Source: Betaproteobacteria bacterium (lineage in GTDB: Bacteria > Pseudomonadota > Gammaproteobacteria > Burkholderiales > JACQAP01). From it: DNA of 64,000 nucleotides. The stretch spans positions 2,939-66,938 of the forward strand of contig JANLTJ010000054.1 of NCBI GenBank assembly GCA_031362885.1. The letters run 5' to 3'. Below, one piece after another: positions 1,998-37,285 of this stretch. The position numbers and the translations under genes were made by a program. Below the pieces are notes generated by a model that was given only the letters and a program-made list of their open reading frames with translations, was not told the DNA's origin and did no database searches. The stretch's first letter is position 1; every line of letters begins with the position of its first letter.

Positions 1998-2036
1998 GCA
2001 GGTTATTCTTTCCCCAATTCATGCAACAGTGCAAGC

Positions 2037-3419
2037 ATGCGCTGTGAACAGGATGCGATTGCCATGACTCAGGATTCTTTTCCCCGGGTTGGTCGGCCGC
2101 TTCTACTCGGGTTGACTGGCGGCCTGTTGTTTGTCTATTCATTGCCGCATGTCATCGCCCTGCGTTACCTGCTTTTGCTCGCTGCGTTTCTCATGTCGGC
2201 GAAGGCTTCGTGGGGGGTGTTGAGAAGCGGCAATCGTTATTGCGCGCTTACCATCGCCCTCGCGACACTTGCCGTCTTACAGCTATGGATGCTGGTTGTG
2301 GTGATCGGGTTTGCCGAGAACGCAGTCGCGTCAATCGGCGAGTGGAAAGGCCAATGGTTGACGGCGATGATGGCGCTATCGACGGGGATCGGAACTGCGG
2401 CGGTCATTTGTCGGATGCAAACGCTAAACGCTCGTTCGGTTTGTGCATTGACGATTGCGGTACCTGTGACCGCGCTAATAATTTTGCACGATGCCGTTGT
2501 TCTTGGAGACATGCTGAAGCAAGGATCACTGCTTACGCAACACGCGGGGATTACCGATCACAAGGCCAACATAAGCTTTGCTTTTGCGCTTCTTGAGCCA
2601 ATTCTGGTCGCTGATATGCTCAGCCGGCTGGTGCACCGGCGAGGATTGTTGCCGTTTCCCTCCTGGGTGGGGTTGCTGATTCTGGCGTTGTCAGTGTTTG
2701 CGTTGTTGACCGCAGGCGCTCGCAATGGACTGATCACGATCTTTTTTGCTTTCCTCTTGGGCGGGGCGGCAATGCTGCCGCAGCTAAAAGCTGTTTACTC
2801 GCGTCGGCGTCTCGTGGTGAGTTCCATTGCCGGGTTGACACTTATCATCACCTATGCCGTGGTGGCATTAAAAACTGACCCGCGCTGGCAGAATTTTTTG
2901 GAGACCTTGCCGATCGCGTGGGATATTGAAGGCGATACGCGCTGGTTGAACGGAGACGGATCGGATTTGCCGATCGCCCCGAGCGGTAAGCCGGTGGAGG
3001 CCTCGGCCTATTACCGTATCGCGTGGGCACATGAAGGCGCGCGCATGCTGATCGAGCATCCCTTGGGAACCGAGATCAATCGCGGTACGTTCAACCGCCT
3101 GCTGCTTGAAAAATATGGCCATACTGGCGCATCGCATACCCATAACGGCTGGCTCGACATGGGCCTCAACGTCGGATTTCCCGGGCTGATACTCTGGGCC
3201 GGGTTTCTCCTGCTGCTCGCACGCATGGGCTGGCGCATGCACCGGGAGCACGCTGACCCCTTGGGCTTTGCGCTATTTCTCCTGGTCGCGACGTTTGCCT
3301 TCCGCGCATTACTTGACACAACCTTTCGGGAGCACCCTCTGGCCCAGTTCATGCTGGTGGCTGGTCTGCTGGCCGGAACCTTGACCAAGATACAAAGAAG
3401 CGAAAGCGTAAGAGCATGA
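2037..3419 (+). CDS. O-antigen ligase family (Wzy_C domain) polytopic membrane protein
   Basis: 460 aa with many TM segments. The periplasmic loop carries the ligase-type motif HTHNGWLDMGLNVGFPGL. The start could instead be the ATG at 2064. Confidence 0.8.
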   Translation: MRCEQDAIAMTQDSFPRVGRPLLLGLTGGLLFVYSLPHVIALRYLLLLAAFLMSAKASWGVLRSGNRYCALTIALATLAVLQLWMLVVVIGFAENAVASIGEWKGQWLTAMMALSTGIGTAAVICRMQTLNARSVCALTIAVPVTALIILHDAVVLGDMLKQGSLLTQHAGITDHKANISFAFALLEPILVADMLSRLVHRRGLLPFPSWVGLLILALSVFALLTAGARNGLITIFFAFLLGGAAMLPQLKAVYSRRRLVVSSIAGLTLIITYAVVALKTDPRWQNFLETLPIAWDIEGDTRWLNGDGSDLPIAPSGKPVEASAYYRIAWAHEGARMLIEHPLGTEINRGTFNRLLLEKYGHTGASHTHNGWLDMGLNVGFPGLILWAGFLLLLARMGWRMHREHADPLGFALFLLVATFAFRALLDTTFREHPLAQFMLVAGLLAGTLTKIQRSESVRA

Positions 3420-4726
3420 AGGATGATTGGCTGATACTTGCGCACGGTTTTAACATGGACGGCCGTGCGGCGAGTCAGACGATTACCGACAAGATTCCGC
3501 ATCTACGCTCACGAGGTATCACGCCGATTGTCCTGAGTGCCGTTACCGGAAGGCGCGATGAGGTCGTAGAGCACCACCAGTTGCTTCCGGTATCGCCTGC
3601 TGGCCTGCGCTTTGATTTGCGTTACATTCTGCGGCGGCATCTCACCAGCAAGCTCGCGTACAAACTGGCCGTGGGACTGATGACCTTGCTGATGCTGCCC
3701 TTCTACGTGCTCGAAAAGCTTTTCATTCGCCTGGAGCCGCAGTGGTCGTGGTTTATCACCGCCTATTTCTTCGGCGCGCGCATTATCCGCAAACGCCAGC
3801 CCGAAGTGATCTATTCCACTGGCGGCGCCAACTCCGCGCACCTGGCGGGCTATCTGCTTGCCAAGCGCTTCTCGCTGCCCTGGGTGGCGGAAATTCACGA
3901 CCCGATGATTTATGAGAACTGGGAGCGCCGACGCATGGCATACCGGTTTGCGGCCTGGCTCGAAGGCAAAATCTGCCAACGCGCGGACGTCGCCATCTGG
4001 TTTGTCGAACCCGCGCTCGAGCGGGCGCGCAAGCGCCATCCTGTTCTGGGCAATCGCGGCAAGGTGATGATCCCGGGGGCGGATCAGCCGGCCTTTGGAA
4101 AGATTTCCTACCAGCGTGGGGCCGAACTGGTGATCGGGCATTTCGGATCCCTTTCCGTCACGCGCAATCTGGCAACCTTCATGCAGGGTCTCACTGCACT
4201 GCTCCAGAAGCGGCCGGATTTGAGCAGAGTTTTGCGGCTGGAGATGTACGGCAGCGGGCTTGACGGCGTGTCCGAGCGCGCCATCGACAGCTTTGCATAC
4301 CCGCAAGTCGTGCGCCGATTCGGGCGACTCGAACGCGATCCGCTCACCGGCGATAGCGGCCGCGACCGCGTGCTCAAGCGGATGCAGACGGTCGATGCGT
4401 TGCTGCTGCTGCACGGTATGGAAAATTTCTGTGAGGAGTACATCCCTTCGAAGCTCTACGAGTATCTGTGGACGCAGCGCCCGATCATTGGATTGACTTG
4501 GCGCAATGCGCATCTCGACCGGATCTTGAAAGAGAGTGGGCACTGGGCGGTGCAGGCAAACGACCTGCCGGGAATCGCGGCGGTGATCGAGGATCTGGTG
4601 GCGCGCTGGGAAAGTGGCCGACTGGGGGACTCCGGCAAGCCTTCCGTGTATACCTCGGCCGCTGCGGTGGACCAGCTTTGCGCCTGGGCGCAGGAGGCGG
4701 TAGATGCTCGCACCACGAAGAGGTGA
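3416..4726 (+). CDS. Glycosyltransferase (GT-B / GT4-like)
   Basis: 436 aa. The start overlaps the previous stop (ATGA). GT-B-like signatures are STGGANSAHLAGYLLAKRFSLPWVAEIHDP and the C-terminal EEYIPSKLYEYL (E-x7-E-like). Family assignment is from motif recall only. Confidence 0.65.
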   Translation: MKDDWLILAHGFNMDGRAASQTITDKIPHLRSRGITPIVLSAVTGRRDEVVEHHQLLPVSPAGLRFDLRYILRRHLTSKLAYKLAVGLMTLLMLPFYVLEKLFIRLEPQWSWFITAYFFGARIIRKRQPEVIYSTGGANSAHLAGYLLAKRFSLPWVAEIHDPMIYENWERRRMAYRFAAWLEGKICQRADVAIWFVEPALERARKRHPVLGNRGKVMIPGADQPAFGKISYQRGAELVIGHFGSLSVTRNLATFMQGLTALLQKRPDLSRVLRLEMYGSGLDGVSERAIDSFAYPQVVRRFGRLERDPLTGDSGRDRVLKRMQTVDALLLLHGMENFCEEYIPSKLYEYLWTQRPIIGLTWRNAHLDRILKESGHWAVQANDLPGIAAVIEDLVARWESGRLGDSGKPSVYTSAAAVDQLCAWAQEAVDARTTKR

Positions 4727-4729
4727 ACG

Positions 4730-5494
4730 TTGAGTTTTCCAGTCGTTGTAAAAACGAAATATGCTTTTCACGCGCTGCTTTGGTTGTTGGAACCGGAGGT
4801 CGTGCTTGATGTTGGCAGCATGGATGGCTCTGATTCCAGGCGATTCCGAAAGCTAGTACCGCGAGCCGACATTGTCGCGTTCGAGGGCAATCCCTACAAC
4901 TATCGCGCGATGCTTGAAGACCCGGAAATCGGACGCGAGCGAATCAAGGTTGTGCATAGTCTGGTTTCGGACATCGAGGGCGTGCGCAGCTTCTTCGTGC
5001 AACGGCCAGTGGCGGGCGCGGGGCATTACAATCGCGGCACCAGTTCGCTTACCCGGCGCGAGGAAGAAGGATTGACCACCGAAGAAGTCCATCTCAATGC
5101 CGTGCGCATCGATTCCTTTCTGGTGCGAGACTATCCCAGGGCCTCGAGCGTGGCACTTTGGGTTGACGTGGAGGGACATGCCTTTTCAGTGCTCGAAGGC
5201 ATGAGTGGCGCCAGGGATCGGGTGAAGCTGATGCATGTCGAAGTCGAAACCGTGGAAGTCTGGCCAGGACAGAAAGTCGAGGCCGACACCCTGCGCCTGG
5301 CCGCGGGTATGGACTTCATTGCCGTGGCCTGCGGCGCGAACGCACTGCAGCGTGACGTGATCTTAGCCAATCGCGTCTGGTACACGGCAAATCGGGGCCG
5401 GATTGACACTTTGCTTCGGCTTTCGACTTTGTCCGGACCGGCGCTTTCCCGGATTCTCGAGTGGTCGAATTTCGGCCGTGCGAGACCTGAATGA
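4730..5494 (+). CDS. FkbM-family SAM-dependent methyltransferase
   Basis: 254 aa with a TTG start. It has LDVGSMDGSDSRRF..FEGNPYNY and the VDVEGHAFSVLEG motif typical of FkbM-type methyltransferases. Confidence 0.8.
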   Translation: MSFPVVVKTKYAFHALLWLLEPEVVLDVGSMDGSDSRRFRKLVPRADIVAFEGNPYNYRAMLEDPEIGRERIKVVHSLVSDIEGVRSFFVQRPVAGAGHYNRGTSSLTRREEEGLTTEEVHLNAVRIDSFLVRDYPRASSVALWVDVEGHAFSVLEGMSGARDRVKLMHVEVETVEVWPGQKVEADTLRLAAGMDFIAVACGANALQRDVILANRVWYTANRGRIDTLLRLSTLSGPALSRILEWSNFGRARPE

Positions 5495-7542
5495 TGCAAG
5501 ACAAAACACCGCCGTTACGCGCCAGCGCGATTACGCATGGAGCGACTTCGCCGGCCGCCCTTACCACCATCATTGTTCTTAGCTACAACAAGTTTTCGGA
5601 AACAACCGGGCCGTGCATACGTAGTCTGGCTGACGATCCTGACTTCACTCGATGGGAGGTAGTCGTAGTCGATAATGCCTCGGACCCGGCAACGCGCTCA
5701 TCGCTGACGGATTTAGCCAGAATTTATCCGCGTCTGCGACTCATCCTCAATGATGCCAATCTGGGTTTTGCCGGCGGCATGAATCTCGGGATGCGGCAGG
5801 CGCGCGGCGACGTTTTTATTCTGCTCAATAGCGATACCATCGTGCCGCCAGGTATGGTCGGTCGCATTGCCAGTGCAGTTCGCCGCAATGCGCAAGTCGG
5901 TCTCCTGGGCCCCGTCACGAACGCGGCCGGAAACGAGCAAGGTATCTTCACCAGCGCAATGGACTACCAGGTCAAAATATCGGAGGGCTTAAAGTTTTCA
6001 AATGCGGGAAGTGACTCTTCGCCTATCCGCGCGTATCGCCTGGACTTTTGTTGTGTTGCTCTGCGCAGAGATGTCTACCAGGAAGTCGGGGATCTCGACG
6101 AAGATTTCGGCCGCGGATATTACGAAGACTTCGACTATTCTCTTCGGGTCGCAAACGCGGGCTTTGATCTCGCTATACTCGAAGATGCCTTCATCTATCA
6201 CCAGGGAAGCGCAAGTTTCAATGATCTCGGCGAGAAAACCAGAAATCTTATCGCGCGCAACAAGGCCATATTGATGGCCAAGCACGGCACAGATATCTGT
6301 TTTCCGCACAGCCGGGACGCCAATCTATCGGTTCTCGATTCGTACTTGCGCATGGCGCAAGCCGGTCAGCCGCCGCCACCATACCGGTTGTCGAACCGCT
6401 TGGCTCTGGCGAAAAGCAACCGACCGAGGAGTTTGTGGAAACGCTGGCGATACGACAAACGGGTGACGCAAGTCGAGCGCTCTCTGCTGGAACTCCATCC
6501 TGGTTCTGCCGCGCTGGCGATGGTTGTGAGTCAGGCGCAATGCATCGATGGTCAAGGTTCAAAAAATCATCACGGGCCTGCGGGCGTTTGCAGAATTTGC
6601 GGCGGTGCGCTCAAGCGTGGTCTGCGCGTGCGGGAGATGATGTTCGGAACCCGCGAAGAATTTTCCTACCACCAATGCGCGAACTGCGCCTGTTTGCAGA
6701 TCGACGTTTTTCCGGAAGATATCGCACGTTACTACCCCGCCGATTACTACAGCTACGATCTGACGCAACACAATGCGATAAAGAGGCTTCGCCGTGGGAG
6801 CAGGCGCAGGCTGATACTGACGGCGCCTGCATTTGTCAGCAGGTCAATGCACCTGTTCTCCGGCTCCGACGACTTGTTTCACCTTTACCGCAACAGGTTG
6901 GGAGTTGGTCCGGCGTCGCGCCTGCTCGATGTCGGGTCGGGTTCCGGCGCGCATGTTTTTGAACTGCGGGAGGCAGGTGTAACAAGGGCATTTGGCGTAG
7001 ATCCCTACGTGCCTCGCACCGTCGAGGCAGATGGGATGCCGGTCGTTTACAAGGCGCGCCTGGACGATCTGACTGGCAGCTATGACTTTATCACCTTCCA
7101 CCATTCACTGGAACATATGCCCGACCAGAAATCGGCACTGAGGGCGGCGGCCCGCCTTCTTGCCCCTGGCGGCAAAATTTTGATACGCGTACCCACGGTC
7201 TCCTCGGAGGCGTATGCCAGATACGGTGCGGACTGGGTTAGTCTTGATGCCCCGCGACACTTTTTCCTGCATTCACATCGCAGCCTCAGGCTCCTGGCGA
7301 GCTCAGCGAATCTGGTCGTCAACGAGTTATGGTGTGATTCGGACGCGATGCAGTTTATGGCGAGTGAACAGTACCGGGAAAATATTCCATTGCTCGACCC
7401 GCAAAGTGCGGCACGGGACGGGGGGAAGCGACTGTTTTCTTTGACGGAAAGAACTTCATTCAAGCTGCGCGCGGTACGGCTGAATCGCCAATTGCGAGGC
7501 GATTCAATCTGCGCAGTTCTTTGCGCGATCCAAGCGCCGTGA
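5491..7542 (+). CDS. Fusion protein: GT2 glycosyltransferase + Cys4 zinc-ribbon + class I SAM methyltransferase
   Basis: 683 aa with an ATGA overlap to the previous gene. The N-terminus is GT-A (IIVLSYNK..VVVDNASDP..LNSD). The middle has CRICGG..x..CANCACLQ. The C-terminus has LLDVGSGSGAHVFEL..FHHSLEHMPD. Confidence 0.8.
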   Translation: MMQDKTPPLRASAITHGATSPAALTTIIVLSYNKFSETTGPCIRSLADDPDFTRWEVVVVDNASDPATRSSLTDLARIYPRLRLILNDANLGFAGGMNLGMRQARGDVFILLNSDTIVPPGMVGRIASAVRRNAQVGLLGPVTNAAGNEQGIFTSAMDYQVKISEGLKFSNAGSDSSPIRAYRLDFCCVALRRDVYQEVGDLDEDFGRGYYEDFDYSLRVANAGFDLAILEDAFIYHQGSASFNDLGEKTRNLIARNKAILMAKHGTDICFPHSRDANLSVLDSYLRMAQAGQPPPPYRLSNRLALAKSNRPRSLWKRWRYDKRVTQVERSLLELHPGSAALAMVVSQAQCIDGQGSKNHHGPAGVCRICGGALKRGLRVREMMFGTREEFSYHQCANCACLQIDVFPEDIARYYPADYYSYDLTQHNAIKRLRRGSRRRLILTAPAFVSRSMHLFSGSDDLFHLYRNRLGVGPASRLLDVGSGSGAHVFELREAGVTRAFGVDPYVPRTVEADGMPVVYKARLDDLTGSYDFITFHHSLEHMPDQKSALRAAARLLAPGGKILIRVPTVSSEAYARYGADWVSLDAPRHFFLHSHRSLRLLASSANLVVNELWCDSDAMQFMASEQYRENIPLLDPQSAARDGGKRLFSLTERTSFKLRAVRLNRQLRGDSICAVLCAIQAP

Positions 7543-7602
7543 TCCAGGCGCCATGCTGCTGATTAATTTTAACGAAGATCTCGAACGACGTATCTGGACC
7601 GC

Positions 7603-8022
7603 ATGACGCCTATCGTCCTTTTCTGCAAGTCTTACCGCGAGGATATTCTGCGCTTGCGGCGCTTGATCCGGATTTTTGAAGATGCATACGTTTTCCATCA
7701 AAGTAGCGGCAGCTTCAAGGCACTGGAGAAAGAAGCCAAGCAACTTATTGTGCGCAACAATCTGCTGCTATTGGAAAGGCCTGGCGATGGCGTCCGGTTT
7801 CCTCATGGCCGGGACGCCAAGCTCGCCGTTATAAACCAGTCCGCCGAGATTTCAGGTGCCGATCCTCGTCCGCCGATTTGCCGGATAAGGAATCGCCTGA
7901 CGCTGGCAAAAATTAATCGCCCCAGGAGTTGGTGGAAGCGCTGGCGATACCTGAGGAGAGTCGCGGCGATCCAGAAACAACTGGCTCCTTGCCACTTGAG
8001 TTCGGCAGGAGCCATCGAGTAA
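7603..8022 (+). pseudogene. Chimeric gene remnant: 5' end like the 8030 gene fused to a copy of the GT2 tail segment
   Basis: 139-aa ORF. Residues 1-25 match the N-terminus of the 8030-8923 product (11/25 identical, core CKSYRxDxLRxRxL). Residues 26-127 align gap-free with residues 231-332 of the 5491-7542 product (47/102 identical by hand count). It has no catalytic GT-A core. Confidence 0.55.
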
Positions 8023-8029
8023 TTCAGCG

Positions 8030-8923
8030 ATGCAGAAACTCGCGATCTATTGCAAGTCGTACCGAAGTGACGTGCTTCGCGCGCGAAAACTCGCGGAGAG
8101 CATTCAGGCGTTTAACCTGGAGCAACTGCCCTTCTATGTATCGGTCCCGTCCGCAGATCTGCAACTCTTCCGAGAGCAGCTTGCTGGATGTCCTGTCGAA
8201 TTTGTAGCTGACGAAGAGATCATTCGCACCAACCCCCGACTCGACTTGAACAAAATTCTCGGACTGCCGGGTGGCATTTCGCAGCAGATCGTCAAGTCAG
8301 AATTCTGGAGACTGGGACTGTTTGAGGCGTACTTGTGCGTTGATTCCGACTGCCAGTTTATCCGCCCTTTTGGTCTGTCCGATTTTTTTGCACCAGAAGG
8401 TTATCCGTATACGGTAATGCACGAGGCGAAGGAGTTGCTCCAATTCGCCGTGAACAATAATTTGGCCAAGATCCACGAGCTTTACCATGCAGAGCACTTG
8501 CGGCTGATGGAAATCTTTGGCCGCAGTGGGCGGCCGTTTGATTTTGGTCCGCCTCCGATGATCTGGAGTTCCCATGTCTGGGGTATGCTCGATGAGCATT
8601 TTCTGCAACCCCGGGGTATGAGTTTTTGTGATGCTATTCTGATGTTCCCGGCCGAGATTCAGTGGTATGGCGAAGCAATGCTCAAGTTCCGGCCGTTTCC
8701 ACTAATGCCCGTGGAACCGCTGTTCAAGTTCTATCATTACGAACACCAATATATCCTTGGTCGGCGGGGCGGAGATTCAATCGAGACACTGAAAAAGAAT
8801 TTCCTCGGTGTTTGCTACCAGTCCAACTGGAATAAGGAAGTCGATTTCTCCGCAACATCCAGGTCGTTGCCGTCGCGAATTTGGCGAACCATTCGCCGAA
8901 CAGCCCTGGGCAGACGCACCTAA
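8030..8923 (+). CDS. Conserved hypothetical protein of the polysaccharide cluster (possible transferase-like protein)
   Basis: 297 aa with no TM segments and no motif I recognise with certainty. It is embedded in the operon and its stop overlaps the next start (TAATG). It looks AT-richer than its neighbours. Confidence 0.5.
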   Translation: MQKLAIYCKSYRSDVLRARKLAESIQAFNLEQLPFYVSVPSADLQLFREQLAGCPVEFVADEEIIRTNPRLDLNKILGLPGGISQQIVKSEFWRLGLFEAYLCVDSDCQFIRPFGLSDFFAPEGYPYTVMHEAKELLQFAVNNNLAKIHELYHAEHLRLMEIFGRSGRPFDFGPPPMIWSSHVWGMLDEHFLQPRGMSFCDAILMFPAEIQWYGEAMLKFRPFPLMPVEPLFKFYHYEHQYILGRRGGDSIETLKKNFLGVCYQSNWNKEVDFSATSRSLPSRIWRTIRRTALGRRT

Positions 8924-9666
8924 TGACTCTTTCTGTTGTCATCATCACCAAAAACGAATCAGCCGCCATCGAGCGCTGTCTGGACTCCGTGAAATGGGCG
9001 GATGAGCTCATCGTGCTGGACTCCGGCAGCACGGACGATACGGTCAGCATTTGCCGCCGGTTTACCCGGCACGTCGTTCAAACCGACTGGCCCGGCTTTG
9101 GCCCGCAGAAGAATCGCGCGCTGGATTACGCTACCGGCGACTGGGTGCTGTCGCTCGACGCGGACGAATGGGTGACGCCGGAGCTGCGTGATGAAATTCT
9201 GAATACCATTTCACGACCAAATGAAATCACAGCATTTCGCATCCCCCGTCTGTCGAGTTTCAGCGGCCGTTTCATGCGTCATTCCGGTTGGTGGCCGGAT
9301 TACGTTGTCCGTCTGTTCCGGCGCGGCACCGCGCGCTTCAGCGACGACGTGGTGCATGAACACGTGATCGCCGATGGCAAGACCGGAACTTTGCAAAATC
9401 CGATCATGCATGAGACGTTTGTCGATCTCGAAGAGCTGCTGTCGAAAATGAACAGTTATTCTTCCCTTGCGGCGCAGGACATGCATCGTGGCGGCAGAAA
9501 GGTCAGCCTCATTGGCGCCGTATTGAGGGGAGGGTGGGCATTCATTCGCACTTATTTTTTCCGTGGTGGATTTCTCGACGGCCGCGAGGGATTCATGCTG
9601 GCAGTGGCCACGGCAGAAGGAACCTATTATCGGTACGCGAAACTGATGTTGCTGGACAGGCAGTGA
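8923..9666 (+). CDS. GT2 glycosyltransferase (LPS core type, WaaE/KdtX-like)
   Basis: MTLSVVIITKNESAAIERCLDSVKWADELIVLDSGSTDDT..SLDADE. I chose the ATG at 8923 (TAATG coupling) over the TTG at 8881 in the ORF track. Confidence 0.85.
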   Translation: MTLSVVIITKNESAAIERCLDSVKWADELIVLDSGSTDDTVSICRRFTRHVVQTDWPGFGPQKNRALDYATGDWVLSLDADEWVTPELRDEILNTISRPNEITAFRIPRLSSFSGRFMRHSGWWPDYVVRLFRRGTARFSDDVVHEHVIADGKTGTLQNPIMHETFVDLEELLSKMNSYSSLAAQDMHRGGRKVSLIGAVLRGGWAFIRTYFFRGGFLDGREGFMLAVATAEGTYYRYAKLMLLDRQ

Positions 9667-10820
9667 CGCAGCACTCGACAGTGGCGGGTTCCGGGCCGGT
9701 GTTTGATCAGAGGTGGTCATTGCCGCAGGGCGAGCCAGGCCGGATCCTGGTCATTGTCACCCGACGCATTGGCGATGTGCTTCTGGCCCTGCCATTGGTC
9801 AGTTCGCTGAAGTCCGCATGGCCGGCCGCGCGTATCGATATGCTCGTGTTCAAAGGCACCGATGGTGTGCTGGCCGGCAATCCGCTGCTCAATGAAGTGA
9901 TCGCTGTCCCGCCATCTCAATCAGCGATACAGACACTTCGTTTTGCACGGGGTTTGTGGCGGCGCTACGACCTCGCGATCTGCACCTCCCCAAGTGATCG
10001 TCCCACGCTGTACGCCTGGCTGGCCGGCAGAAATCGCATCGGCATCATGGCTTCTGGCGCCAAGCACGCGTGGAAGCGCGCACTGCTGCACGCGATCGTT
10101 CCCTTCGACGATAACAACACGCATACCGTAGTGCAGAATCTCCGGCTGGCCGATTTGCTGGACGTGCCACGCCGCTTCGACATGCCCATTGGCCGCACGG
10201 GTGACGATGAGCGGCAACTGGAAGCCTTGTTTCCGGATTTCCGGAATACGCGATTTGCCGTGCTGCACCTGTACCCAAAATTCGCCTACAAGATGTGGGA
10301 CCCGATACAGTGGCAGGAGTTGGCCTCGTGGCTTAAGGAGCAGGGAATTGCGGTCGTTCTCAGCGGCAGCGGCGATCCGCAGGAACTGGCCTATGTAAGC
10401 GAGTTTGCGGACTCGCACTCCCGCGCCGGGGAATCGCCGCCGCTGAACCTGGCGGGTAAATTGAGCTTTGCGCAACTGGCGCTGTTGCTGGAGCGCGCAG
10501 CTGTCTATATTGGCCCCGATACCGTTACCACGCATCTTGCGGCGGCGCTTGGAGCGCCCACGCTCGCCTTATTCGGGCCCTCGAATCCGGTCAAATGGGG
10601 GCCCTGGCCAAAGGGACACGAAGCCCTGACTTCGCCTTATCGGCGGCAAGGTACGCAGTTCGTCGGCAACGTCGCGCTGGTGCAGGGGACAGGTCATTGC
10701 GTTCCCTGCCTGCTGGAGGGCTGTGCTCGCCATCAGGGCAGCGGCAGTGCCTGCCTGCAGATGCTGCAGGCTGCTGTGGTGATCTCGGCGATCGAGAAAC
10801 TGCTGAACCCGGTGAGCTGA
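9663..10820 (+). CDS. GT9 family glycosyltransferase (LPS heptosyltransferase-like)
   Basis: ILVIVTRRIGDVLLALPLV.. N-terminus and a C-terminal GPDTVTTHLAAALGAPTLALFGP motif typical of GT9. The GTG at 9663 overlaps the previous TGA (GTGA). The upstream part of the ORF (9534-9662) lies inside the previous gene. Confidence 0.85.
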   Translation: MTQHSTVAGSGPVFDQRWSLPQGEPGRILVIVTRRIGDVLLALPLVSSLKSAWPAARIDMLVFKGTDGVLAGNPLLNEVIAVPPSQSAIQTLRFARGLWRRYDLAICTSPSDRPTLYAWLAGRNRIGIMASGAKHAWKRALLHAIVPFDDNNTHTVVQNLRLADLLDVPRRFDMPIGRTGDDERQLEALFPDFRNTRFAVLHLYPKFAYKMWDPIQWQELASWLKEQGIAVVLSGSGDPQELAYVSEFADSHSRAGESPPLNLAGKLSFAQLALLLERAAVYIGPDTVTTHLAAALGAPTLALFGPSNPVKWGPWPKGHEALTSPYRRQGTQFVGNVALVQGTGHCVPCLLEGCARHQGSGSACLQMLQAAVVISAIEKLLNPVS

Positions 10821-10821
10821 C

Positions 10822-11898
10822 GTGCAATCGATTCAAGTCGTGGAGCCGACGCTGGATGGCTACTCAGGGCATTGTCACAGTCTGGTAACCAGTTTGTTTC
10901 AGGCCTTGGGCGGCAGGCGCATCGATTTGTGGAGTGCAACCGGCTCGCAAGGCCTCGAGTTCGCTTCCCAAGTGGTGAATCATCCGGTTTTTCGCCGACG
11001 CATTCGCCTGTTGCAAACCCTGGTGTTGTATCGGCGGCTGTTGCGAGAAGGCGCGCCGGTCATCGTAACCACGGCACGCCGCAGTGACCTGATATTGCTT
11101 GATCTGGTTGCCGGCGGCCGGTTGCCGGCCAACCGCATTTTCCTTTATTTCCATTGGTTGCACGAGACGCCCGCCAAATTGCGTTCGCTGCGCAGACTTG
11201 CATTGCGACAGCCGCAGATCAATATTTTCGGTACGACCGCGAGCGTTGTTGATGCATTCAAACGCTGCGGATTCAGTCAAGTCTTTCTGCTTCCCTATCC
11301 GTCCCCGCCAGCCTCGGCCCACGACGCGCGCGCGCCATTCCGGCAATTGCTTTACGCCGGGGCCGCACGGCGGGACAAGGGGTTTGCGCTGATCGTGGAC
11401 TTGGTTGAATTGCTTGTACGCGAAGCAGCCCGGAGGCGAATCACGGTTCAGGTATCCGCCGATCACTACGGAAAAATCGATGCGCAGATTAAGTCTGACA
11501 TCGCACGCCTGCATGCCACGGGGTATGCCGGATTGTCGATCGTGCCGCAAACTCTGACACCGCGGGAGTATGCGGCCTTGTTTCCCGGCAGCATCTGCCT
11601 GCAACCCTACGATCAAGCCGATTTTCGCGATCGCGTCAGCGGCGTGACATTGGATGCACTGACGCATGCCTGCCCGGTCGTGGCCACGGCCGGTACCTGG
11701 AGCGCGGCTCTGGTCAAATCTTTTGGCGCCGGAGTTGAACTGACTGCATTGAGCGCGGAGGGCCTATTGCAGGCCGTCACATCAATTGAGAGTGAATATG
11801 CGAGGTTTCAGGCTGGTGCGCTCGCGGCGGGGCAGGCGCAAAATCGCCAATCCTGGACACCGCTGCTGGAGCGATTGGCGCTTGCACGCGTCGAATGA
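10822..11898 (+). CDS. Putative glycosyltransferase (GT-B-like), last gene of the cluster
   Basis: 358 aa. The GTG start lies 1 nt after the previous TGA. It has a two-lobed Rossmann-like pattern and a C-terminal SGVTLDALTHACPVVAT segment resembling GT1/GT4 donor-binding lobes. The assignment is weak. Confidence 0.45.
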   Translation: MQSIQVVEPTLDGYSGHCHSLVTSLFQALGGRRIDLWSATGSQGLEFASQVVNHPVFRRRIRLLQTLVLYRRLLREGAPVIVTTARRSDLILLDLVAGGRLPANRIFLYFHWLHETPAKLRSLRRLALRQPQINIFGTTASVVDAFKRCGFSQVFLLPYPSPPASAHDARAPFRQLLYAGAARRDKGFALIVDLVELLVREAARRRITVQVSADHYGKIDAQIKSDIARLHATGYAGLSIVPQTLTPREYAALFPGSICLQPYDQADFRDRVSGVTLDALTHACPVVATAGTWSAALVKSFGAGVELTALSAEGLLQAVTSIESEYARFQAGALAAGQAQNRQSWTPLLERLALARVE

Positions 11899-11962: not shown

Positions 11963-12478
11963 ATGATGATGAATGAAAAGAAGTTCACGGTGCCGGCCAT
12001 TCTGCTCGCGATAGCGGCGCTTGCGGCCGGTATCTATGCCGGCTGGAGCCGTCCAGTGGCACCGGCCGATGTTAACTTTATCGGCGTGTACGGAGACCGC
12101 TTCACGATGTCTTCGCTCAAAGGCAAGGTCGTGCTGGTCAATTTCTGGGCGACATCGTGTGCGGTGTGCGTCAGCGAGATGCCGAAGATGGTTCAGACCT
12201 ACGACAAGTATCGCGAGCGCGGGTTTGACTTTGTGGCCGTGGCCATGGCTTACGATCCGCCGGATCGGGTTTTTGCCTACGCGCAGCAGAACAAGCTGCC
12301 ATTCCGGGTGGCGCTGGATCTTGCAGGACAGGCCATGCAGGCCTTCGGCGGCATACGCGGCACACCGACGACTTTCCTGGTCGACCGGCACGGGAAAATC
12401 GTCAGGCGCATCGAGGGAGAGCCCGACTTTGAGGCGCTTGGCGGGTTGATCGAGAAAGAGCTGTCGAAAAGCGGCTGA
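11963..12478 (+). CDS. tlpA: TlpA-family periplasmic thiol:disulfide oxidoreductase
   Basis: 171 aa with an N-terminal TM anchor and the thioredoxin-fold motif VLVNFWATSCAVCVSEMP (CxxC). Confidence 0.85.
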   Translation: MMMNEKKFTVPAILLAIAALAAGIYAGWSRPVAPADVNFIGVYGDRFTMSSLKGKVVLVNFWATSCAVCVSEMPKMVQTYDKYRERGFDFVAVAMAYDPPDRVFAYAQQNKLPFRVALDLAGQAMQAFGGIRGTPTTFLVDRHGKIVRRIEGEPDFEALGGLIEKELSKSG

Positions 12479-16506: not shown

Positions 16507-16986
16507 ATGAATCCGCCTGCCGGACAATCTAGCATCAGAGCGATTATGTTGGCCTGGCTGCTGACGGGAGCAGCGCAGGCCGCCGACCTGATCCAGGTGA
16601 AGGATCCATGGACGAGGGCCACGGTTCCGGGACAAAAGGTCGGTGGCGTCTATATGAAGCTGATCGCGCGCGAACCGCTGCGCCTTACGGGCGTGAAAAC
16701 GAAAATGGCGGAAACCGCCGAAGTCCATCAAATGAAAATGGAGGATGGCATGATGAGAATGCGGCCTTTGCCATTTCTCAATCTGCCCGCCCGCACGACC
16801 GTCACGCTCGCGCCGGGAGGCAATCACATTATGCTGTTCGACCTGAAGCAGTCGCTGGTGGCGGGGCAGAAGATCAAGCTGGAACTGGTCGTCGAAGATG
16901 CGTCCAAACGCGAGCGCCGCGTCGCGGTCGAAGCTGTTGTGCGCGATCGTGCGAGCGGTACCCAGACGGAGCACGACCAACGTTGA
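16507..16986 (+). CDS. Periplasmic copper chaperone PCu(A)C (DUF461)
   Basis: 159 aa with a signal sequence. It has the H(M)x10Mx21HxM-type copper motif region (AEVHQMKMEDGMMRMRP...GGNHIMLFDL). The ATG at 16507 was chosen because the upstream part of the track ORF overlaps dacC. Confidence 0.85.
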   Translation: MNPPAGQSSIRAIMLAWLLTGAAQAADLIQVKDPWTRATVPGQKVGGVYMKLIAREPLRLTGVKTKMAETAEVHQMKMEDGMMRMRPLPFLNLPARTTVTLAPGGNHIMLFDLKQSLVAGQKIKLELVVEDASKRERRVAVEAVVRDRASGTQTEHDQR

Positions 16987-16989
16987 CGG

Positions 16990-17784
16990 CTACCCTGCGA
17001 TTTCCAGCCCCGCGATCCAGCCGGCTTCAACCCAGGCGCGCAACATGCCGGCGGCTTTTGCGGCCGCCGCGTCCTCAGCCACCCATTCACACAACCCGGT
17101 GCAGATTTCGCCAAAACTGGCCTGAGACCTCATGGCGTGCAGTGCCCAGGCTTCGTCGGCTTCCAGTGATCGAAAGAATGGCGACAGTTGTTTGCGCCAT
17201 ACAACCCATGTCACCAGTTGGGGCGAAAGATCAACCGCGATCGCGCTGCTGTTTTCCTTGAGAGACTTCCAGATCGCGACCGCATTCGTGCGCAAAGCCA
17301 ATACACGCAAGGCGGGCTGAGCCTGAAAGCGAAGATCGGCCCAGTCCTCGGGCGCAACGGCGGCCATGTCCTCAAATTGCACGGCCTCGATGTCTGCCGC
17401 ATCAAAAGCCTCTCCAAGAGACCACTCGAATTGGGCCAGTTCGGCCATTTCCGGGCGCTCGATGTAGGGCGTTGTCACGCGCAGAAATTCCGCCAGCCTG
17501 CCGCCAAACCAGCGCACGTTTCGAAACGTCGATGGGTGCGCGCCAATGTAATCGCGGGCAAGAGAGTCAAAAGTTTCGTCGCCAAGGTAGGCACGCAGGA
17601 CTTCGTAATCGTTGCCCAGAACCTCGGTCAAACGCAGGCGATAGGCATCACGGTAAATGCCCAGCCGTGTAGAGCGGAATTCCGCGCTGTCGCCTTCGAT
17701 GTGCCGGTCTATGGCCGCCGCGCCTTGCAGCACATAGTCCTGAAAGTGAGTCTCAGTGAGTACAAGACGCGGCGCGTTGCTCAT
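16990..17784 (-). CDS. bufC: DUF2063-family protein, MNIO partner (BufC-like)
   Basis: 264 aa from ATG 17784, which overlaps the DUF692 stop (ATGA). It has the typical DUF2063 N-terminus (..[22 protein letters not shown]..). The gene is always paired with DUF692 in this type of operon. Confidence 0.85.
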
Positions 17785-18620
17785 GCTGCGACCCGGGTAG
17801 GCAGGTTCCGCGAAGCCACTTGGCGCGCGTGCCCGAGTTCGGTCACCAGATCGGCCAGCGGTGGGATATGATCGTCGCGCTCGATCATGGTGGCAACGTT
17901 GCCAAAACGGCGCACCGCGCCGGCGTACAGATCCCACACCGGATCGACAATATCCGCATCATGAGTGTCGATAATATGCGTGCCGCAGTTGCTGTGGCCG
18001 GCCAGGTGAATCTGGCGCACGCGATCGACCGGTATGCCGTTGAGGAACTCCAGAGCGTCGAAACCGTGATTGAAAGCGCTGACGTAAATGTTGTTCACAT
18101 CCAGCAGCACATGGCAGTCGGCGCGTTGCGCGATCTCCGACAGAAAATTCCATTCACTCATCTCGGAGGCACGGAAAGTCACGTAACTCGACACGTTCTC
18201 CAGCAGAATCTGCCGGCCGAGAAAATCCTGTACTTCGCGCACGCGCGCGGCGACATGTTCGACCGCCTCTTCGGTATAGGGAATCGGGAACAGATCGTGC
18301 AGATTCTTGCCGGCGACACCGGTCCAGCACAAATGATCCGACACCCAGGCCGGTTGCACGCGCTGCGCCAGTTGCTTCAGTGACTTCAGGTAATCCTGGT
18401 CAAGCGGGTCCGTGCTGCCGATGGAAAGCGACACCCCGTGCAGCACGATGGGATAGTCGGCACGGATGCGATCCAGGTAATACAGCGGCTTGCCGCCGGA
18501 GACCAGATAGTTTTCGCTGAGCGCCTCGAACCAGTCCACGCGCGGCTGATCCGCCAGGATGTCTTCGTAATGATCGGTGCGCAGGCCGAGGCCGAATCCC
18601 AGTCCCGAAGCTGCTGTCAT
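17781..18620 (-). CDS. bufB: DUF692-family multinuclear non-haem iron oxidase (MNIO; BufB/MbnB-like)
   Basis: 279 aa. [59 protein letters not shown] is full-length collinear with UPF0276/DUF692 TIM-barrel proteins. Confidence 0.9.
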
Positions 18621-18687
18621 GAAGAGACCATCGAGTTCACGCGAACGCGGGAGTCCGACTGGACGGACTCCCGCAACAGGCCTCCAG

Positions 18688-18939
18688 TTACGAGCGCTGG
18701 GTGGCTTTCTTGCATTCTTCCGCGGTCAGCGTAACGACGCCCTGGCCCTTGCAGGCGTTCTGGCCCTTGCAGGCGCTGTTCGCGCTCTTGCACTCACTCT
18801 GACCCTTGCAGGCGTTGCCGCCGTTGCAAGCTATCCGCGCCTCGGTCCCGCCCGAACCGCCCATGCTCGAACAACCCGCCATAAAAATTGCCGCGGCGGA
18901 GGCAGCTACCGCCAAGCCTACGATTTTTCTGCGTTCCAT
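18688..18939 (-). CDS. bufA: Cys-rich secreted RiPP precursor, bufferin BufA2-like (6-Cys class), with a possible lipobox
   Basis: 83 aa with a strong SD (AAGGAGAAGGAAC) before the ATG. The signal peptide ends in FMAGC. The core is [60 protein letters not shown], with 6 Cys. It lies 67 nt upstream of the DUF692 gene. Confidence 0.75.
18742..18814 (-). repeat. Three copies of a 16-nt unit CTGRCCCTTGCAGGCG inside the precursor gene (encode the A-C-K-G-Q motif)
   Basis: Copies at 18742-18757, 18760-18775 and 18799-18814, read directly from the sequence. Copies 1 and 2 are 18 nt apart, giving a 6-codon period. Confidence 0.9.
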
Positions 18940-18982
18940 GGTTCCTTCTCCTTACTAAGAGTTTGATTGACGATCTGCGTGG

Positions 18983-19252
18983 TTACGGCCGTCGTTGCCT
19001 GCCGCAATCCCAAGTACGCAGCAAGCAGGCAAACGGATGCGGGTTAGGGTCCCCTTGTTCTCGCTCCTGGCGATCTGCTTTGATAGCGGGATGATCGCGC
19101 AAGGCAGTGCGCAGAAAGGACATTGGTTTCTGAAGGTTACGGCAGCCGGCGCAGACCTTCAAGTGCACGGATAAACGCCAGCGCTCGACCCAGCCAAGGC
19201 GCCGGTCCCGCGATTGCGAGACCTGCGCCGAGACGTGCTTACAGGTATTCAT
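18983..19252 (-). CDS. zf-HC2 (zinc-binding anti-sigma-like) domain protein
   Basis: 89 aa from ATG 19252: MNTCKHVSAQVSQSRDRRLGWVERWRLSVHLKVCAGCRNL.. carries the H-x3-C-x2-C ZAS motif. No TM segment. Directly upstream of and co-directional with the precursor gene. Confidence 0.6.
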   Translation of the reverse strand: MNTCKHVSAQVSQSRDRRLGWVERWRLSVHLKVCAGCRNLQKPMSFLRTALRDHPAIKADRQEREQGDPNPHPFACLLRTWDCGRQRRP

Positions 19253-19539
19253 CGATTCTGGCTTGCGGCTGATCCGCATTGTGGCAGGCAGTCCTCAATT
19301 GGCAGCACCGATCGGCTGGTCTTCTGTGCCGAACCAGGCACTCGCCCAAGATCAAAGAATAACCCAGCAATTGAATGAGGAAATACCAAGTTCCTCATTG
19401 AGGCGACTGGTGACGCTGCACTTGCGGCAGCGTATAGCGGCAGAGATAGTCGCGGTGCTCCTGAAGCTCTTCGATCCCGGCGCCGCCGATTGCCGCCAAC
19501 GCCGTGGTCGGAACACGCCCTGGCAGGGACATGCATGCT

Positions 19540-19569
19540 CTTGAAATGGCCGGGATGGCGCTTATATAA
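19540..19569 (+). promoter_or_regulatory. Candidate sigma-32 (heat-shock) promoter of the hsp20 gene
   Basis: CTTGAAA (19540-19546), a 13-nt spacer, then gCttATaTA (19560-19568). Compare the consensus CTTGAAA-N13-17-CCCCATnTA. It lies about 50 nt upstream of ATG 19620, which has the SD AAGGAGA. Confidence 0.45.
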
Positions 19570-19619
19570 GCCGCAAGGGTAGCTACTGCACCCGCACTTT
19601 CATTCAAGGAGACCACATC

Positions 19620-20042
19620 ATGGCAAATCTGATGCGCTGCAATCCATTTGACGACGGCTTGGACGACTTTTTCAAGGGTTTTTTCGTGCGCCCGCTAACA
19701 CTCGACAATTCGGCGCCGGTGCAAGTGCGCATGGACGTAGCCGAGGATGCTGACGCCTATACTGTGCGCGCCGAGATTCCGGGCGTGAAAAAAGATGACA
19801 TCAACGTCACCATCGACGGCAATCAAATCGCCATCAGCGCCGAAGTCAAGCGCGAGAGCGAGGACAAGCGCGGTGAAGCGCTGCTGCGCTCCGAGCGTTA
19901 TTATGGAAAAGTCCATCGCGCCTTCAGTCTGGCGCAGGACGTGGACGAGGCCGCGGCGCAAGCGAAGTACCACGAGGGCGTTCTGGAGCTGCGTCTGCCA
20001 AAGAAGGCCGCTGCCAGCGCAAGGAAACTGACGATCCAGTGA
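19620..20042 (+). CDS. Small heat-shock protein, Hsp20/alpha-crystallin family
   Basis: 140 aa. The alpha-crystallin domain runs from DVAEDADAYTVRAEIPGVKKDDINVTIDGNQIAISAE.. to ..GVLELRLPK. Confidence 0.93.
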   Translation: MANLMRCNPFDDGLDDFFKGFFVRPLTLDNSAPVQVRMDVAEDADAYTVRAEIPGVKKDDINVTIDGNQIAISAEVKRESEDKRGEALLRSERYYGKVHRAFSLAQDVDEAAAQAKYHEGVLELRLPKKAAASARKLTIQ

Positions 20043-22480: not shown

Positions 22481-22951
22481 GTGCGTGGCGCGAAGAAAAA
22501 GCTCAGGCCAGTAGCGTGCGCGCTGGTGGCGGCACTGCTGGGCGCTTGCGCCGCATCGGACGACGAATTTGCCAAGGTCGTGGTCGGCACCTGGGGTTCG
22601 CGCGAAGTGGCGCCCGACGATGTCATTGTTGAAAACCGATTCACGCTATTGCCCGGTGGGCGTGTCAACTGGCAGGGCGAGCTGCGCATGCTGGTGCCGG
22701 CCGATTTTGACTTGCCCAATCGCCCCAACTTCGAAATCAGAAACGGCCGGTTGGTGTATTACTTTTCCGCCAGCGGCAACTGGTCGGTGCGCGATGGCTA
22801 TCTGCACACGAAGATCGAGACGTCCACTCTGCCGAGTCTGATGCCGTCGGGTTTCGCCGCCGCTTGGAAACTTAAGGAAGTGACCGGCAAGGAAATGATC
22901 TACACGTCGGCCGCCAGCGGGCGCACGCGCGTCGAATATCGAAAAGACTGA
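22481..22951 (+). CDS. Hypothetical lipoprotein
   Basis: 156 aa with a GTG start and a lipobox (ALLGAC). I recognise no family. Confidence 0.5.
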   Translation: MRGAKKKLRPVACALVAALLGACAASDDEFAKVVVGTWGSREVAPDDVIVENRFTLLPGGRVNWQGELRMLVPADFDLPNRPNFEIRNGRLVYYFSASGNWSVRDGYLHTKIETSTLPSLMPSGFAAAWKLKEVTGKEMIYTSAASGRTRVEYRKD

Positions 22952-36166: not shown

Positions 36167-36267
36167 TCCGGGCACAGATTCTGCATCATCAGCCTTGTTG
36201 AATGTTTAATGCCCTGATCGATCACCGATTTTATTTTCACAAACCACTTGAGTGCCGAAAGGTCGTC

Positions 36268-36762
36268 ATGAATCAAACGCAAAGCAGACATCTTCAACCA
36301 GCCAAAGGTTTCACCCTGATCGAGCTGGTCATCACGATCAGCGTCATCGGCATCCTGGCAGCGGTTGCCTTGCCACGCTATATCACCCTGCAAACCCAGG
36401 CGCGCGCAGCCAAAATGCAGGCGATCTTTGGTGGGGTTCGATCGGCCGCCGCGCTCGCGCATGCCCAGGCGCTGGCCACCGGTGCTTTGCCGGGTGCCTC
36501 CATTTCCATGGAAGGCCAGCCCGTGACCCAAGTCAACGGCTACCCCACCGCGAATGCGGCCGGCATCATCACGGCCTTGCAGCTCAGCGCCACGAGCGAC
36601 CAGGTGGTCATTTCCGCGGGCGGTCCGGGCGCTGGCCAGTTGATCACCATCGATATCGTCGGCGCTGCCGTGGCGGCAAGCTGCCGGGTGTCCTACACGT
36701 CCGCGGCGGCGCTCAATGCCTCGCCCACTATTGCAGTACCGGTTGCGCCCGATTGTTCGTGA
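36268..36762 (+). CDS. Type IV pilin (MshB/MshA-like), class III signal peptide
   Basis: Leader MNQTQSRHLQPAKG followed by FTLIELVITISVIGILAAVALPRY. C-terminal Cys pair. ATG 36268 chosen. Confidence 0.75.
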   Translation: MNQTQSRHLQPAKGFTLIELVITISVIGILAAVALPRYITLQTQARAAKMQAIFGGVRSAAALAHAQALATGALPGASISMEGQPVTQVNGYPTANAAGIITALQLSATSDQVVISAGGPGAGQLITIDIVGAAVAASCRVSYTSAAALNASPTIAVPVAPDCS

Positions 36763-36824
36763 GTGTGCGAATCGCGCCGCAGGACAATTGAACTTTGTGT
36801 TTTTCGTAGTTTTTTAATAGGAGA

Positions 36825-37214
36825 ATGAAAATGCAAGCCAAGCAAAACGGTTTTACCCTGATCGAACTGGTGGTCGTGATCGTGATTCTCGGCATTCTTG
36901 CCGCCACCGCGCTGCCACGATTCGTCAACTTGTCCAATGAGGCCGGTGCCGCCGCTGCGCAAGGCGTTGCTGCCGCGTTATCGTCTGCTTCGAGCATCAA
37001 CTATGCGGCCCGTAAGGCCGGCAACGCCAGCGCAGTCGTGGTGGGGTCCTGTGCGACCGTGCCGCCCTTGTTGGTGGGAGGCGCCATGCCATCGGGCTTT
37101 ACGCTGGGCGCCGGCACTGCCTGCACGGCGGCCGATGGCGGCACCGCGACTTGCCCGGTGACCAATACCCAGTCGTCGCAAATCGCCAGCGCGACCATCA
37201 TTTGCGCTAACTGA
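36825..37214 (+). CDS. mshA: Major MSHA-type pilin
   Basis: 129 aa. Leader MKMQAKQNG followed by FTLIELVVVIVILGILAATALPRF. 4 Cys in the C-terminal half. Strong SD (AGGAGA) and an AT-rich upstream region. Confidence 0.8.
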   Translation: MKMQAKQNGFTLIELVVVIVILGILAATALPRFVNLSNEAGAAAAQGVAAALSSASSINYAARKAGNASAVVVGSCATVPPLLVGGAMPSGFTLGAGTACTAADGGTATCPVTNTQSSQIASATIICAN

Positions 37215-37285
37215 CCATTTCAGGCAGGTCGGGCGCCACGGTGCGGGACGAACGCTCTCACACCCGCCTGGCAATCGGCGCTGCA

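Follow-up and report, generated by a model that had tools for sequence, protein, structure and literature searches.

A probable lipoprotein-type Buf2 bufferin operon next to a decayed sigma/anti-sigma module in a betaproteobacterial contig

The subject of this analysis is a stretch of 64,000 nucleotides of contig JANLTJ010000054.1 (positions 2,939 to 66,938) from a Betaproteobacteria bacterium, referred to below as the window, in which three adjacent minus-strand genes encode a small Cys-rich precursor, a multinuclear non-haem iron oxidase (MNIO), and an MNIO partner protein (PME1). With a probability that we put at roughly 85%, the locus is a bufA2-bufB-bufC operon for a Buf2-type bufferin, or "Cys-Lys captophorin," of the lipoprotein type. 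The system is already known, and the locus is an ordinary member of the bufferin family, to which the lipobox of the precursor, a decayed sigma/anti-sigma module, a promoter-like motif, and a hairpin add refinements. Since bufferins have been characterised and surveyed (PMC11626156, PMC12452194, PMC13097082), and some homologues of the precursor already carry the name 'BufA2 family periplasmic bufferin-type metallophore' at NCBI, the locus is not the best candidate for a novel system that an earlier reading made from the letters alone (the sequence-only reading) had seen in it. MNIO-PME1 loci number more than 24,000 and are present in about half of the Pseudomonadota reference genomes, and three groups of precursors are recognised, the Cys-Lys group among them (PMC13097082).

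Genes and products of the operon

The precursor, MNIO, and partner genes are adjacent and form one transcription unit, with a gap of 67 nt between bufA2 and bufB and an overlap of the bufC start codon with the bufB stop codon in the sequence ATGA (17784-17781), via which bufC is translationally coupled to bufB. The hidden Markov model E-values for the three-gene locus (2e-19, 1e-118, and 6e-20) are far beyond chance, and the order A-B-C was found by tblastn in about 65 of 80 related genome loci. An alignment of the upstream regions showed that the GGAGAA around the Shine-Dalgarno sequence of bufA2 is kept in relatives. A longer open reading frame (ORF) for bufC, with 315 codons from a GTG at 17937, was rejected as an upstream extension, the gene calls on identical metagenome contigs giving the 264-residue product. 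The sequence-only reading had delimited all three ORFs exactly, including the 67-nt gap, the ATGA overlap, and, for the precursor, a strong Shine-Dalgarno sequence (found as AAGGAG), a signal peptide, and a Gly/Cys/Lys-rich core; its range of 16990-19279 fits these three genes and also spans a zf-HC2 ORF (Table 1) that it left unmentioned. The profile comparison that it had proposed gave matches to the Pfam models for DUF692 (PF05114) and DUF2063 (PF09836) and to the NCBIfam bufferin precursor model. Its assignment of the locus to bufferin-type operons for ribosomally synthesized peptides with post-translational modifications (RiPPs) made by an MNIO agrees with BufA2 and BufB equivalogs above cut-off, conserved active-site residues, and a partner fold that matches known MNIO partners. 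Gene structure, family membership, catalytic residues, and partner fold were all computed, as was the conservation of lipobox, motif, and hairpin described further below.

The precursor scores 69.5 bits against NF050166 (Cu_RiPP_BufA2; cut-off, 60 bits), with residues 9 to 79 lying on positions 2 to 74 of the 79 in the profile; it has no Pfam match and so is not a DUF2282 protein. It is composed of a signal peptide (residues 1 to 22), a Gly/Ser linker (residues 24 to 35), and a Gly/Cys/Lys-rich core. The N-terminus has RRK at residues 3 to 5, followed by an uncharged hydrophobic stretch that reaches to residue 22, and, judged by rule and conservation, the signal peptide is predicted to be of the Sec type. 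The seven Cys residues comprise C23 and six in the core (C38, C44, C50, C57, C63, and C76), the latter being invariant in an alignment of 46 homologues in which C23 is not. The placement in a six-Cys, BufA2-like branch by the sequence-only reading was therefore right with respect to the core and to the NF050166 match, but the ORF holds a seventh Cys, C23, which occupies position +1 of a lipobox. Cys-Lys dyads are present at C44, C50, C57, and C63; K45 is invariant and K64 nearly so, whereas K51 and K58 vary among the homologues. Six core Cys residues in Cys-Lys context define the Buf2, or Cys-Lys, group (PMC12452194, PMC13097082), and in Caulobacter Buf2 each central Cys loses 4.03 Da, whereas the first and the last Cys escape modification and are probably joined in a disulfide (PMC11626156). 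On account of their positions relative to the Cys residues of Caulobacter Buf2, C44, C50, C57, and C63 are predicted thiooxazole sites; by the same analogy, C38 and C76 are a predicted disulfide pair. The EGKCG motif is absent from the precursor sequence. In four other loci (L045, L048, L079, and L082, at approximately 3700-5500), which belong to metagenome-assembled genomes (MAGs) of Reyranella, Rhodospirillales, and Alphaproteobacteria, three to four tandem bufA2-like genes are located 5' of a single bufB-bufC pair.

BufB reaches 395.3 bits with NF050167 (MNIO_BufB, 'MNIO family bufferin maturase'; cut-off, 310 bits) and 385 bits with Pfam PF05114 (MbnB_TglH_ChrH). The sister models stayed below cut-off, with 283.8 versus 360 bits for HvfB and 74.2 versus 325 bits for MbnB (TIGR04159), and those for ApyH and ChrH far below (51 bits for ChrH). 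The closest solved MNIO structure is 3BWW (E = 9e-55). In an alignment with 7tcr, the BufB residues H61, H96, E141, D174, N177, H205, D218, and H220 correspond to H54, H90, E133, D163, N166, H192, D208, and H210 of MbnB, for which the iron-ligand identities are described in PMC9060507, and E248 and D250 fall on the ERD motif of 3BWW. These eight residues together with E248 are predicted to be the ligands of three irons. The BufB motif E248-R249-D250-D251 (...IERDDHIPP...) differs from that of 3BWW (...LERDFNFPP...) in the residue following the catalytic Asp, which acts as a base and is followed by Asp in Cys-Lys MNIOs and by Phe in Lys-Cys MNIOs (PMC13097082); D250 is thus the predicted catalytic base, and D251 is the predicted Cys-Lys specificity residue.

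The N-terminal domain of BufC matches PF09836 (DUF2063) with 71.8 bits, and one BufC homologue is named 'HvfC/BufC family peptide modification chaperone.' As a sequence search of the PDB with BufC gave no match even at E <= 1, a fold search was performed with an AlphaFold2 model of high confidence, which had been computed from a 40-sequence alignment (predicted local distance difference test [pLDDT], 90.5; predicted template modelling score [pTM], 0.84). Foldseek related this model to the DUF2063 protein 3DEE of N. gonorrhoeae (E = 2e-6) and to TglI, the partner of TglH (8hi7_A and 8hci_A; E = 4e-6 to 1e-5), and its C-terminal part to RiPP recognition element (RRE) domains, e.g., that of TbiB1, with a probability of 0.93-0.96. 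According to the model, BufC is predicted to combine an N-terminal DUF2063 domain with a C-terminal RRE-like domain, as in PME1-type partners.

Lipobox and regulatory region

The signal peptide of the precursor ends in a lipobox, F19-M20-A21-G22 followed by C23, whose codon is at 18873-18871. The lipobox rule (PROSITE PS51257) calls for [LIVMFWSTAG](2)-[LIVMFYSTAGCQ]-[AGS]-C preceded by six uncharged residues. Residues 13 to 23 fit this rule: positions -10 to -5 are free of charge, the Cys is residue 23, and R/K is found among residues 1 to 7. A comparison of 120 homologues showed that nearly all of the close ones have the lipobox Cys, followed by a variable Gly/Ser linker, and that the distant ones possess Ala-X-Ala sites and six Cys residues only. 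About 16% of the Buf2 precursors are predicted lipoproteins according to SignalP 6 (PMC12452194), and a subset of bufferins listed as predicted lipoproteins has been mined again (PMC13056109); in both studies, bufferin lipidation stands as a prediction only. The precursor described here appears to belong to this predicted lipoprotein subclass of Buf2 and is probably lipid-anchored. Given the lipobox, maturation would proceed via Lgt, signal peptidase II, and Lnt instead of yielding a free peptide by signal peptidase I, so that of the export route suggested by the sequence-only reading (Sec and signal peptidase) the Sec part stands and the signal peptidase I step would be replaced. The locus is a clean example of the lipoprotein-type Buf2 subclass and as such could be used to probe the existence of lipidated thiooxazole metallophores.

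The region 5' of bufA2 contains the remains of a regulatory module. The 98-aa ORF located there scores 54.7 bits with NF052368 (cut-off, 50 bits) and matches PF13490 as well, and thereby belongs to the zinc-binding anti-sigma factors (ZAS) of the zf-HC2 type. Its interpretation as a full-length anti-sigma factor was rejected, because the only seven ZAS homologues detected all have 63 to 70 residues and its tail represents read-through: the conserved product, a small stand-alone protein of approximately 61 to 66 residues with the motif C..HxxxCxxC, starts at an ATG at 19252, and its ancestral stop codon is lost in the window, extending the ORF by 24 to 28 codons across the promoter-like motif described below. 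Among population variants, the ZAS ORF shows stop-codon and missense polymorphism and has three alleles at one codon. Next to it, a remnant of a gene for an extracytoplasmic function (ECF) sigma factor was detected, in which codons ~1-26 are joined to codons ~153-197, with a frameshift and an in-frame stop, and which lacks approximately 375 nt spanning region 2 to region 4. By blastn, nt 211-276 of the relatives' sigma correspond to window positions 19469-19403 and nt 652-702 to 19395-19354. The identical deletion is present in five independent assemblies and is therefore not an assembly artefact. In the related loci L087, L088, L089, L090, and L091, an intact gene for an ECF sigma factor of the TIGR02943 family (195 to 203 residues) is followed by a ZAS gene, which in L087, L088, and L091 precedes bufA2; in L008, tblastn gave a full-length sigma match at the same position, the order being sigma, ZAS, bufA2. 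In the window, no intact ECF sigma was found among ten ORFs of 129 to 333 codons scanned against Pfam, a set that took in the ORFs as long as a sigma gene would be, and a tblastn search of all 64 kb with the relatives' sigma returned the remnant only. Because the sigma gene is destroyed here, an ECF sigma factor encoded elsewhere would have to drive expression.

In a published survey, Buf1 clusters were reported to have sigma and anti-sigma genes and Buf2 clusters were not; unlike in that survey, the lineage described here shows ECF sigma and ZAS genes attached to Buf2 operons. ECF sigma homologues that are 23 to 45% identical to the relatives' sigma also adjoin Buf2 loci in several distant lineages (L014, L015, L021, L026, L029, L032, L037, L056, L061, L062, and L073).

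The sequence GCATCC-N16-CGTA 5' of bufA2 has a single match in the 64-kb window. Its two boxes are conserved, whereas the spacer between them is not, and it is located at the same distance in L007-L011 and L087-L091, including those loci that have no local sigma or ZAS gene. The motif was also found 5' of Buf2 genes in more distant loci, and 23 of the 83 upstream regions contain a relaxed form of it, compared to a background of 0.042 per 300 nt. On the basis of this conservation, the motif most likely represents the putative bufA2 promoter. In locus L054, from an Alcaligenaceae MAG, it is present twice, at 1644-1668 and 4806-4830, in front of a DUF2282-type buf1 operon and a buf2 operon, respectively, which suggests one regulon for both bufferin types; a candidate promoter motif common to buf1 and buf2 operons could define such a regulon. 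The Caulobacter sigmaF motif GTAACC-N16-CGAA was considered and rejected, since a conserved GTAACC lies approximately 50 nt 5' of bufA2 but no CGAA is found at the right spacing. A scan for generic sigma-70 promoters and intrinsic terminators gave counts no higher than in shuffled sequences.

The 67-nt spacer between bufA2 and bufB folds with -37.6 kcal/mol (z = -3.5), and none of 200 shuffled sequences folded as well. Strong hairpins of different sequences are present at the same place in 24 other loci, and in 17 of the 25 loci none of 20 shuffles folded as well as the spacer; for the five closest loci, the hairpin region was aligned. We propose that the hairpin could adjust the amount of precursor relative to enzyme, acting as a partial terminator or stabilising the mRNA. 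Because an Rfam scan of 16800-19800 at E <= 1 gave nothing, neither the hairpin nor the conserved 5' region belongs to a known RNA family, and a text search of two bufferin papers found neither the promoter-like motif nor the hairpin mentioned.

Table 1. Features of the bufferin locus and its flanks (window coordinates)
Feature	Position	Strand	Size or description	Basis
bufA2, precursor	18688-18939	-	83 aa, ATG start	NF050166 match, direct reading
bufB, MNIO (formerly DUF692)	17781-18620	-	279 aa	NF050167, PF05114
bufC, MNIO partner (PME1)	16990-17784	-	264 aa	PF09836, AlphaFold2 model, Foldseek
Shine-Dalgarno sequence AAGGAG	18953-18948	-	8 nt 5' of bufA2 ATG	Direct reading
Spacer stem-loop	18647-18674	-	Perfect 11-bp GC-rich stem, 6-nt loop, no T-run	
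ECF-type promoter-like motif (G)CATCC-N16-CGTA, putative	19015-19039	-	76 nt 5' of bufA2 ATG	Conservation
ZAS (zf-HC2) anti-sigma ORF	18983-19279	-	98 aa as read	NF052368, PF13490
ECF sigma remnant (pseudogene)	19298-19499	-	TIGR02943 family in relatives	tblastn with L088 sigma, blastn
PCu(A)C periplasmic copper chaperone	16546-16986	+	146 aa (call on identical contigs)	PF04314, 117 bits

Proposed mechanism, alternatives, and genomic context

With respect to chemistry, lipidation, localisation, copper function, and regulation, we extrapolate from homologous systems. The precursor would be synthesised in the cytoplasm, where a complex of the iron- and O2-dependent BufB with BufC would, by analogy, recognise its core peptide; recognition presumably involves the core, since BufA1 is modified without need of its signal peptide. 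C44, C50, C57, and C63, each preceding a Lys, would be converted to 5-thiooxazoles, an assignment that has recently been reinforced for this enzyme clade (PMC13097082; 10.64898/2025.12.15.693703). The modified peptide would then be exported by Sec, Cys23 would be diacylglycerylated by Lgt, signal peptidase II would remove the signal peptide, and Lnt would acylate the N-terminus thus exposed. Because the residue at position +2 is Ser, the Lol system would be expected to sort the lipopeptide to the inner face of the outer membrane, with the metal-binding domain hanging on the Gly/Ser tether, and, with the C38-C76 disulfide formed, the four thiooxazoles would chelate excess periplasmic copper. 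Transcription would start from the conserved ECF-type promoter with a sigma factor encoded elsewhere, and the stem-loop after bufA2 would lead to more precursor than enzyme message.

Several points weigh against this interpretation. The precursor is called a lipoprotein by the lipobox rule and by conservation, the +2 sorting rule for lipoproteins is an E. coli rule, and the lipobox Cys23 may not be spared by BufB. An AlphaFold2 model of the precursor, computed from the 46-sequence alignment, was too poor to be used (pLDDT, 51; pTM, 0.22). BufC reaches 41.7 bits on the HvfC equivalog (cut-off, 142 bits), and no BufC-specific model was seen in the scan of the NCBIfam library. Moreover, expression is uncertain, because the cognate sigma gene beside the operon is a deletion remnant.

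Two alternatives concern the precursor itself. It could be an ordinary soluble periplasmic bufferin like those of Caulobacter, cut by signal peptidase I and not lipidated at Cys23, which would simply belong to the mature peptide or to the signal peptide; solubility is a property of the bufferins characterised so far, and AxA sites with six Cys residues only are common in the family. We consider this unlikely, given the fit of residues 13 to 23 to the lipobox rule, the constant place of the Cys in essentially all close homologues, with the variable Gly/Ser linker behind it, and the share of SignalP 6-predicted lipoproteins among Buf2 precursors cited above (PMC12452194). It appears highly improbable that the product of the small ORF stays unmodified, as a Cys-rich periplasmic protein that has three disulfides, and that BufB and BufC act on another substrate: sizeable fractions of the bufferin precursor genes do sit away from MNIO genes (PMC12452194), so that a precursor-like gene alone is no proof of modification, but the precursor gene here is located 67 nt 5' of bufB within a conserved A-B-C unit, BufB has the Asp pairing with the Lys that follows each Cys of the substrate, and the gene calls on identical contigs offer no other candidate substrate gene nearby.

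The state of the regulatory module raises the question of whether the operon is a silent or decaying relic, whose promoter is no longer recognised since the adjacent ECF sigma gene lost approximately 375 nt, the peptide thus remaining unmade. A regulatory module in decay is suggested by the sigma remnant together with the stop-codon and missense polymorphisms of the orphan ZAS gene, and the 64-kb window contains no other homologue of the lost sigma factor. Nevertheless, bufA2, bufB, and bufC as well as the promoter-like motif are intact, and on variants that all carry the sigma deletion, bufB and bufC show six synonymous versus one to two nonsynonymous single-nucleotide polymorphisms and bufA2 none; this comparison covers L003-L005, L001 and L002 having been left out owing to an indel in the ungapped comparison, and its pattern points to continued constraint on the biosynthetic genes, in a small sample. 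In addition, L007, L009, L010, and L011 keep motif and operon without any local sigma or ZAS gene, and hence the sigma factor would act in trans. We therefore regard a relic as quite unlikely, and the locus instead illustrates the natural loss of a local sigma gene with the biosynthetic genes still under constraint.

The peptide could also be modified and serve mainly in copper buffering and hand-over together with PCu(A)C, or in the binding of another soft metal, rather than in detoxification. The convergent PCu(A)C neighbour retained in close relatives and the presence of an aa3 oxidase cluster with Cox11 in the window speak for hand-over, and bufferin-MerC fusions suggest other metals for some members (PMC12452194). 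On the other hand, the pairing with PCu(A)C is seen in this lineage only and not at distant Buf2 loci, and the two bufferins of Caulobacter are induced by copper and give protection when it is in excess (PMC11626156), so we hold a main role other than detoxification to be very unlikely; the surrounding housekeeping genes say nothing either way. A composite scheme, to which we attach only a slight chance, would make the lipid-anchored bufferin, placed at the inner face of the outer membrane, and PCu(A)C a copper reservoir or hand-over system for cuproenzyme assembly more than a means of detoxification, with control moved from the decayed sigma/ZAS pair to a trans-acting sigma factor on a GCATCC-N16-CGTA 'bufferin regulon' promoter shared by buf1 and buf2. 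In our preferred interpretation, the operon specifies a lipid-anchored Buf2 bufferin directed against excess copper.

The exact proteins are present on metagenome contigs from several samples and in one NCBI record, and the closest genome matches are MAGs of uncultured Betaproteobacteria or Burkholderiales. The PCu(A)C gene is convergent with bufC and lies 3 nt past the bufC stop codon; its pairing with the operon is kept in L010, L011, and L087, and it is context and not part of the operon. Together with hsp20, it makes up flanks that are retained in the closest relatives only. The hsp20 gene is divergent (19620-20042), and approximately 50 nt 5' of it lies a sigma-32-like promoter, CTTGAAA-N14-CTTATATA (19540-19568, plus strand), of which both boxes are conserved in relatives. 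The other neighbours are housekeeping genes, i.e., argB, dacA, lipB, lipA, and genes for a HAD hydrolase, a TetR/SlmA-like regulator, ThiF, an S41 peptidase, and a D-amino-acid aminotransferase. The genes called up to 6 kb away in both directions include none for DoxX, as the sequence-only reading had stated; its absence is no peculiarity, since buf2 of Caulobacter, the founding operon, lacks doxX as well (PMC11626156).

Farther away, the plus strand carries a cluster for an aa3-type cytochrome c oxidase (55318-63571) with CoxB, CoxA, CtaG/Cox11 (58195-58758), CoxC, haem O synthase, and a weak match to haem A synthase (54.4 bits; cut-off, 550 bits); the window thus encodes a copper-requiring enzyme in addition to the bufferin and PCu(A)C. 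A run of polysaccharide/lipopolysaccharide-type genes (84-11898, plus strand) includes Polysacc_synt_2, a Wzy_C O-antigen ligase-like protein, several glycosyltransferases, an FkbM methyltransferase, and a heptosyltransferase. Beside lipA, a TlpA/ResA-like periplasmic thiol-disulfide oxidoreductase is encoded (11963-12478, plus strand), which is below the NCBIfam cut-offs, and two adjacent small proteins with a prokaryotic N-terminal methylation motif, resembling type IV pilins or pseudopilins, are encoded at 36202-37214 (plus strand). Four ORFs of 156 to 234 codons had no Pfam match at E <= 0.001 (22481-22951 and 60909-61544, plus strand; 37220-37924 and 54680-55279, minus strand); the one with 156 codons is called as a gene on identical contigs and has a lipoprotein-like N-terminus (...LLGAC).

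Comparison with known systems

Methanobactin biosynthesis by MbnABC shares with the locus the MNIO fold, identical iron ligands, and, as predicted for the locus, Cys-derived heterocycles that bind copper. BufB is below the cut-off of the MbnB model, and the systems further differ in the partner, MbnC not being a DUF2063 protein, in the oxazolone-thioamide product, in a precursor with a leader peptide and a dedicated export route, and in a function in copper acquisition. Lipidated MNIO RiPPs such as DybA and chryseobasin-like peptides (PMC13056109) likewise have a signal peptide ending in a lipobox and the Lgt/signal peptidase II/Lnt route; their MNIOs belong to a different subfamily, as reflected in the ChrH score given above, and form a macrocycle and a hydantoin instead of thiooxazoles.

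The EGKCG or Lys-Cys captophorins (oxazolin of HvfABC, fontiphorin, and gonophorin; PMC11252979, PMC13097082) also depend on an MNIO and a PME1 partner and contain 5-thiooxazole, and their group holds 3BWW, the closest solved structure to BufB; the closest structure to BufC is 3DEE. The locus is set apart from HvfABC/oxazolin by the lack of EGKCG repeats, by scores below the HvfB and HvfC cut-offs, and by ERDD in place of ERDF. The Buf1 and gig operons, with a DUF2282 precursor, MNIO, DUF2063, and DoxX, have the same enzyme pair and the thiooxazole chemistry and copper role predicted here, whereas the precursor described here is not a DUF2282 protein and has six instead of four core Cys, and no DoxX gene is located nearby.

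The locus corresponds to Buf2 of Caulobacter vibrioides (bufA2B2C2, CCNA_02999-03001; PMC11626156), in which precursor, MNIO, and DUF2063 genes have the same order, again without doxX. The Caulobacter precursor likewise has a Sec-type signal peptide and six core Cys in Cys-Lys context, and D251 of Caulobacter BufB2 is an Asp following the catalytic Asp, as in the BufB described here. Differences exist in regulation, for which Caulobacter uses SigF/NrsF encoded at the buf1 locus while a TIGR02943-type sigma remnant and a small ZAS are found here, and in the sequences concerned, GCATCC-N16-CGTA being the candidate promoter here and GTAACC-N16-CGAA the sigmaF site of Caulobacter. Compared to Caulobacter BufA2, which by its description has a predicted Sec signal peptide, the precursor described here is distinguished by its lipobox, a seventh Cys, and a Gly/Ser tether.

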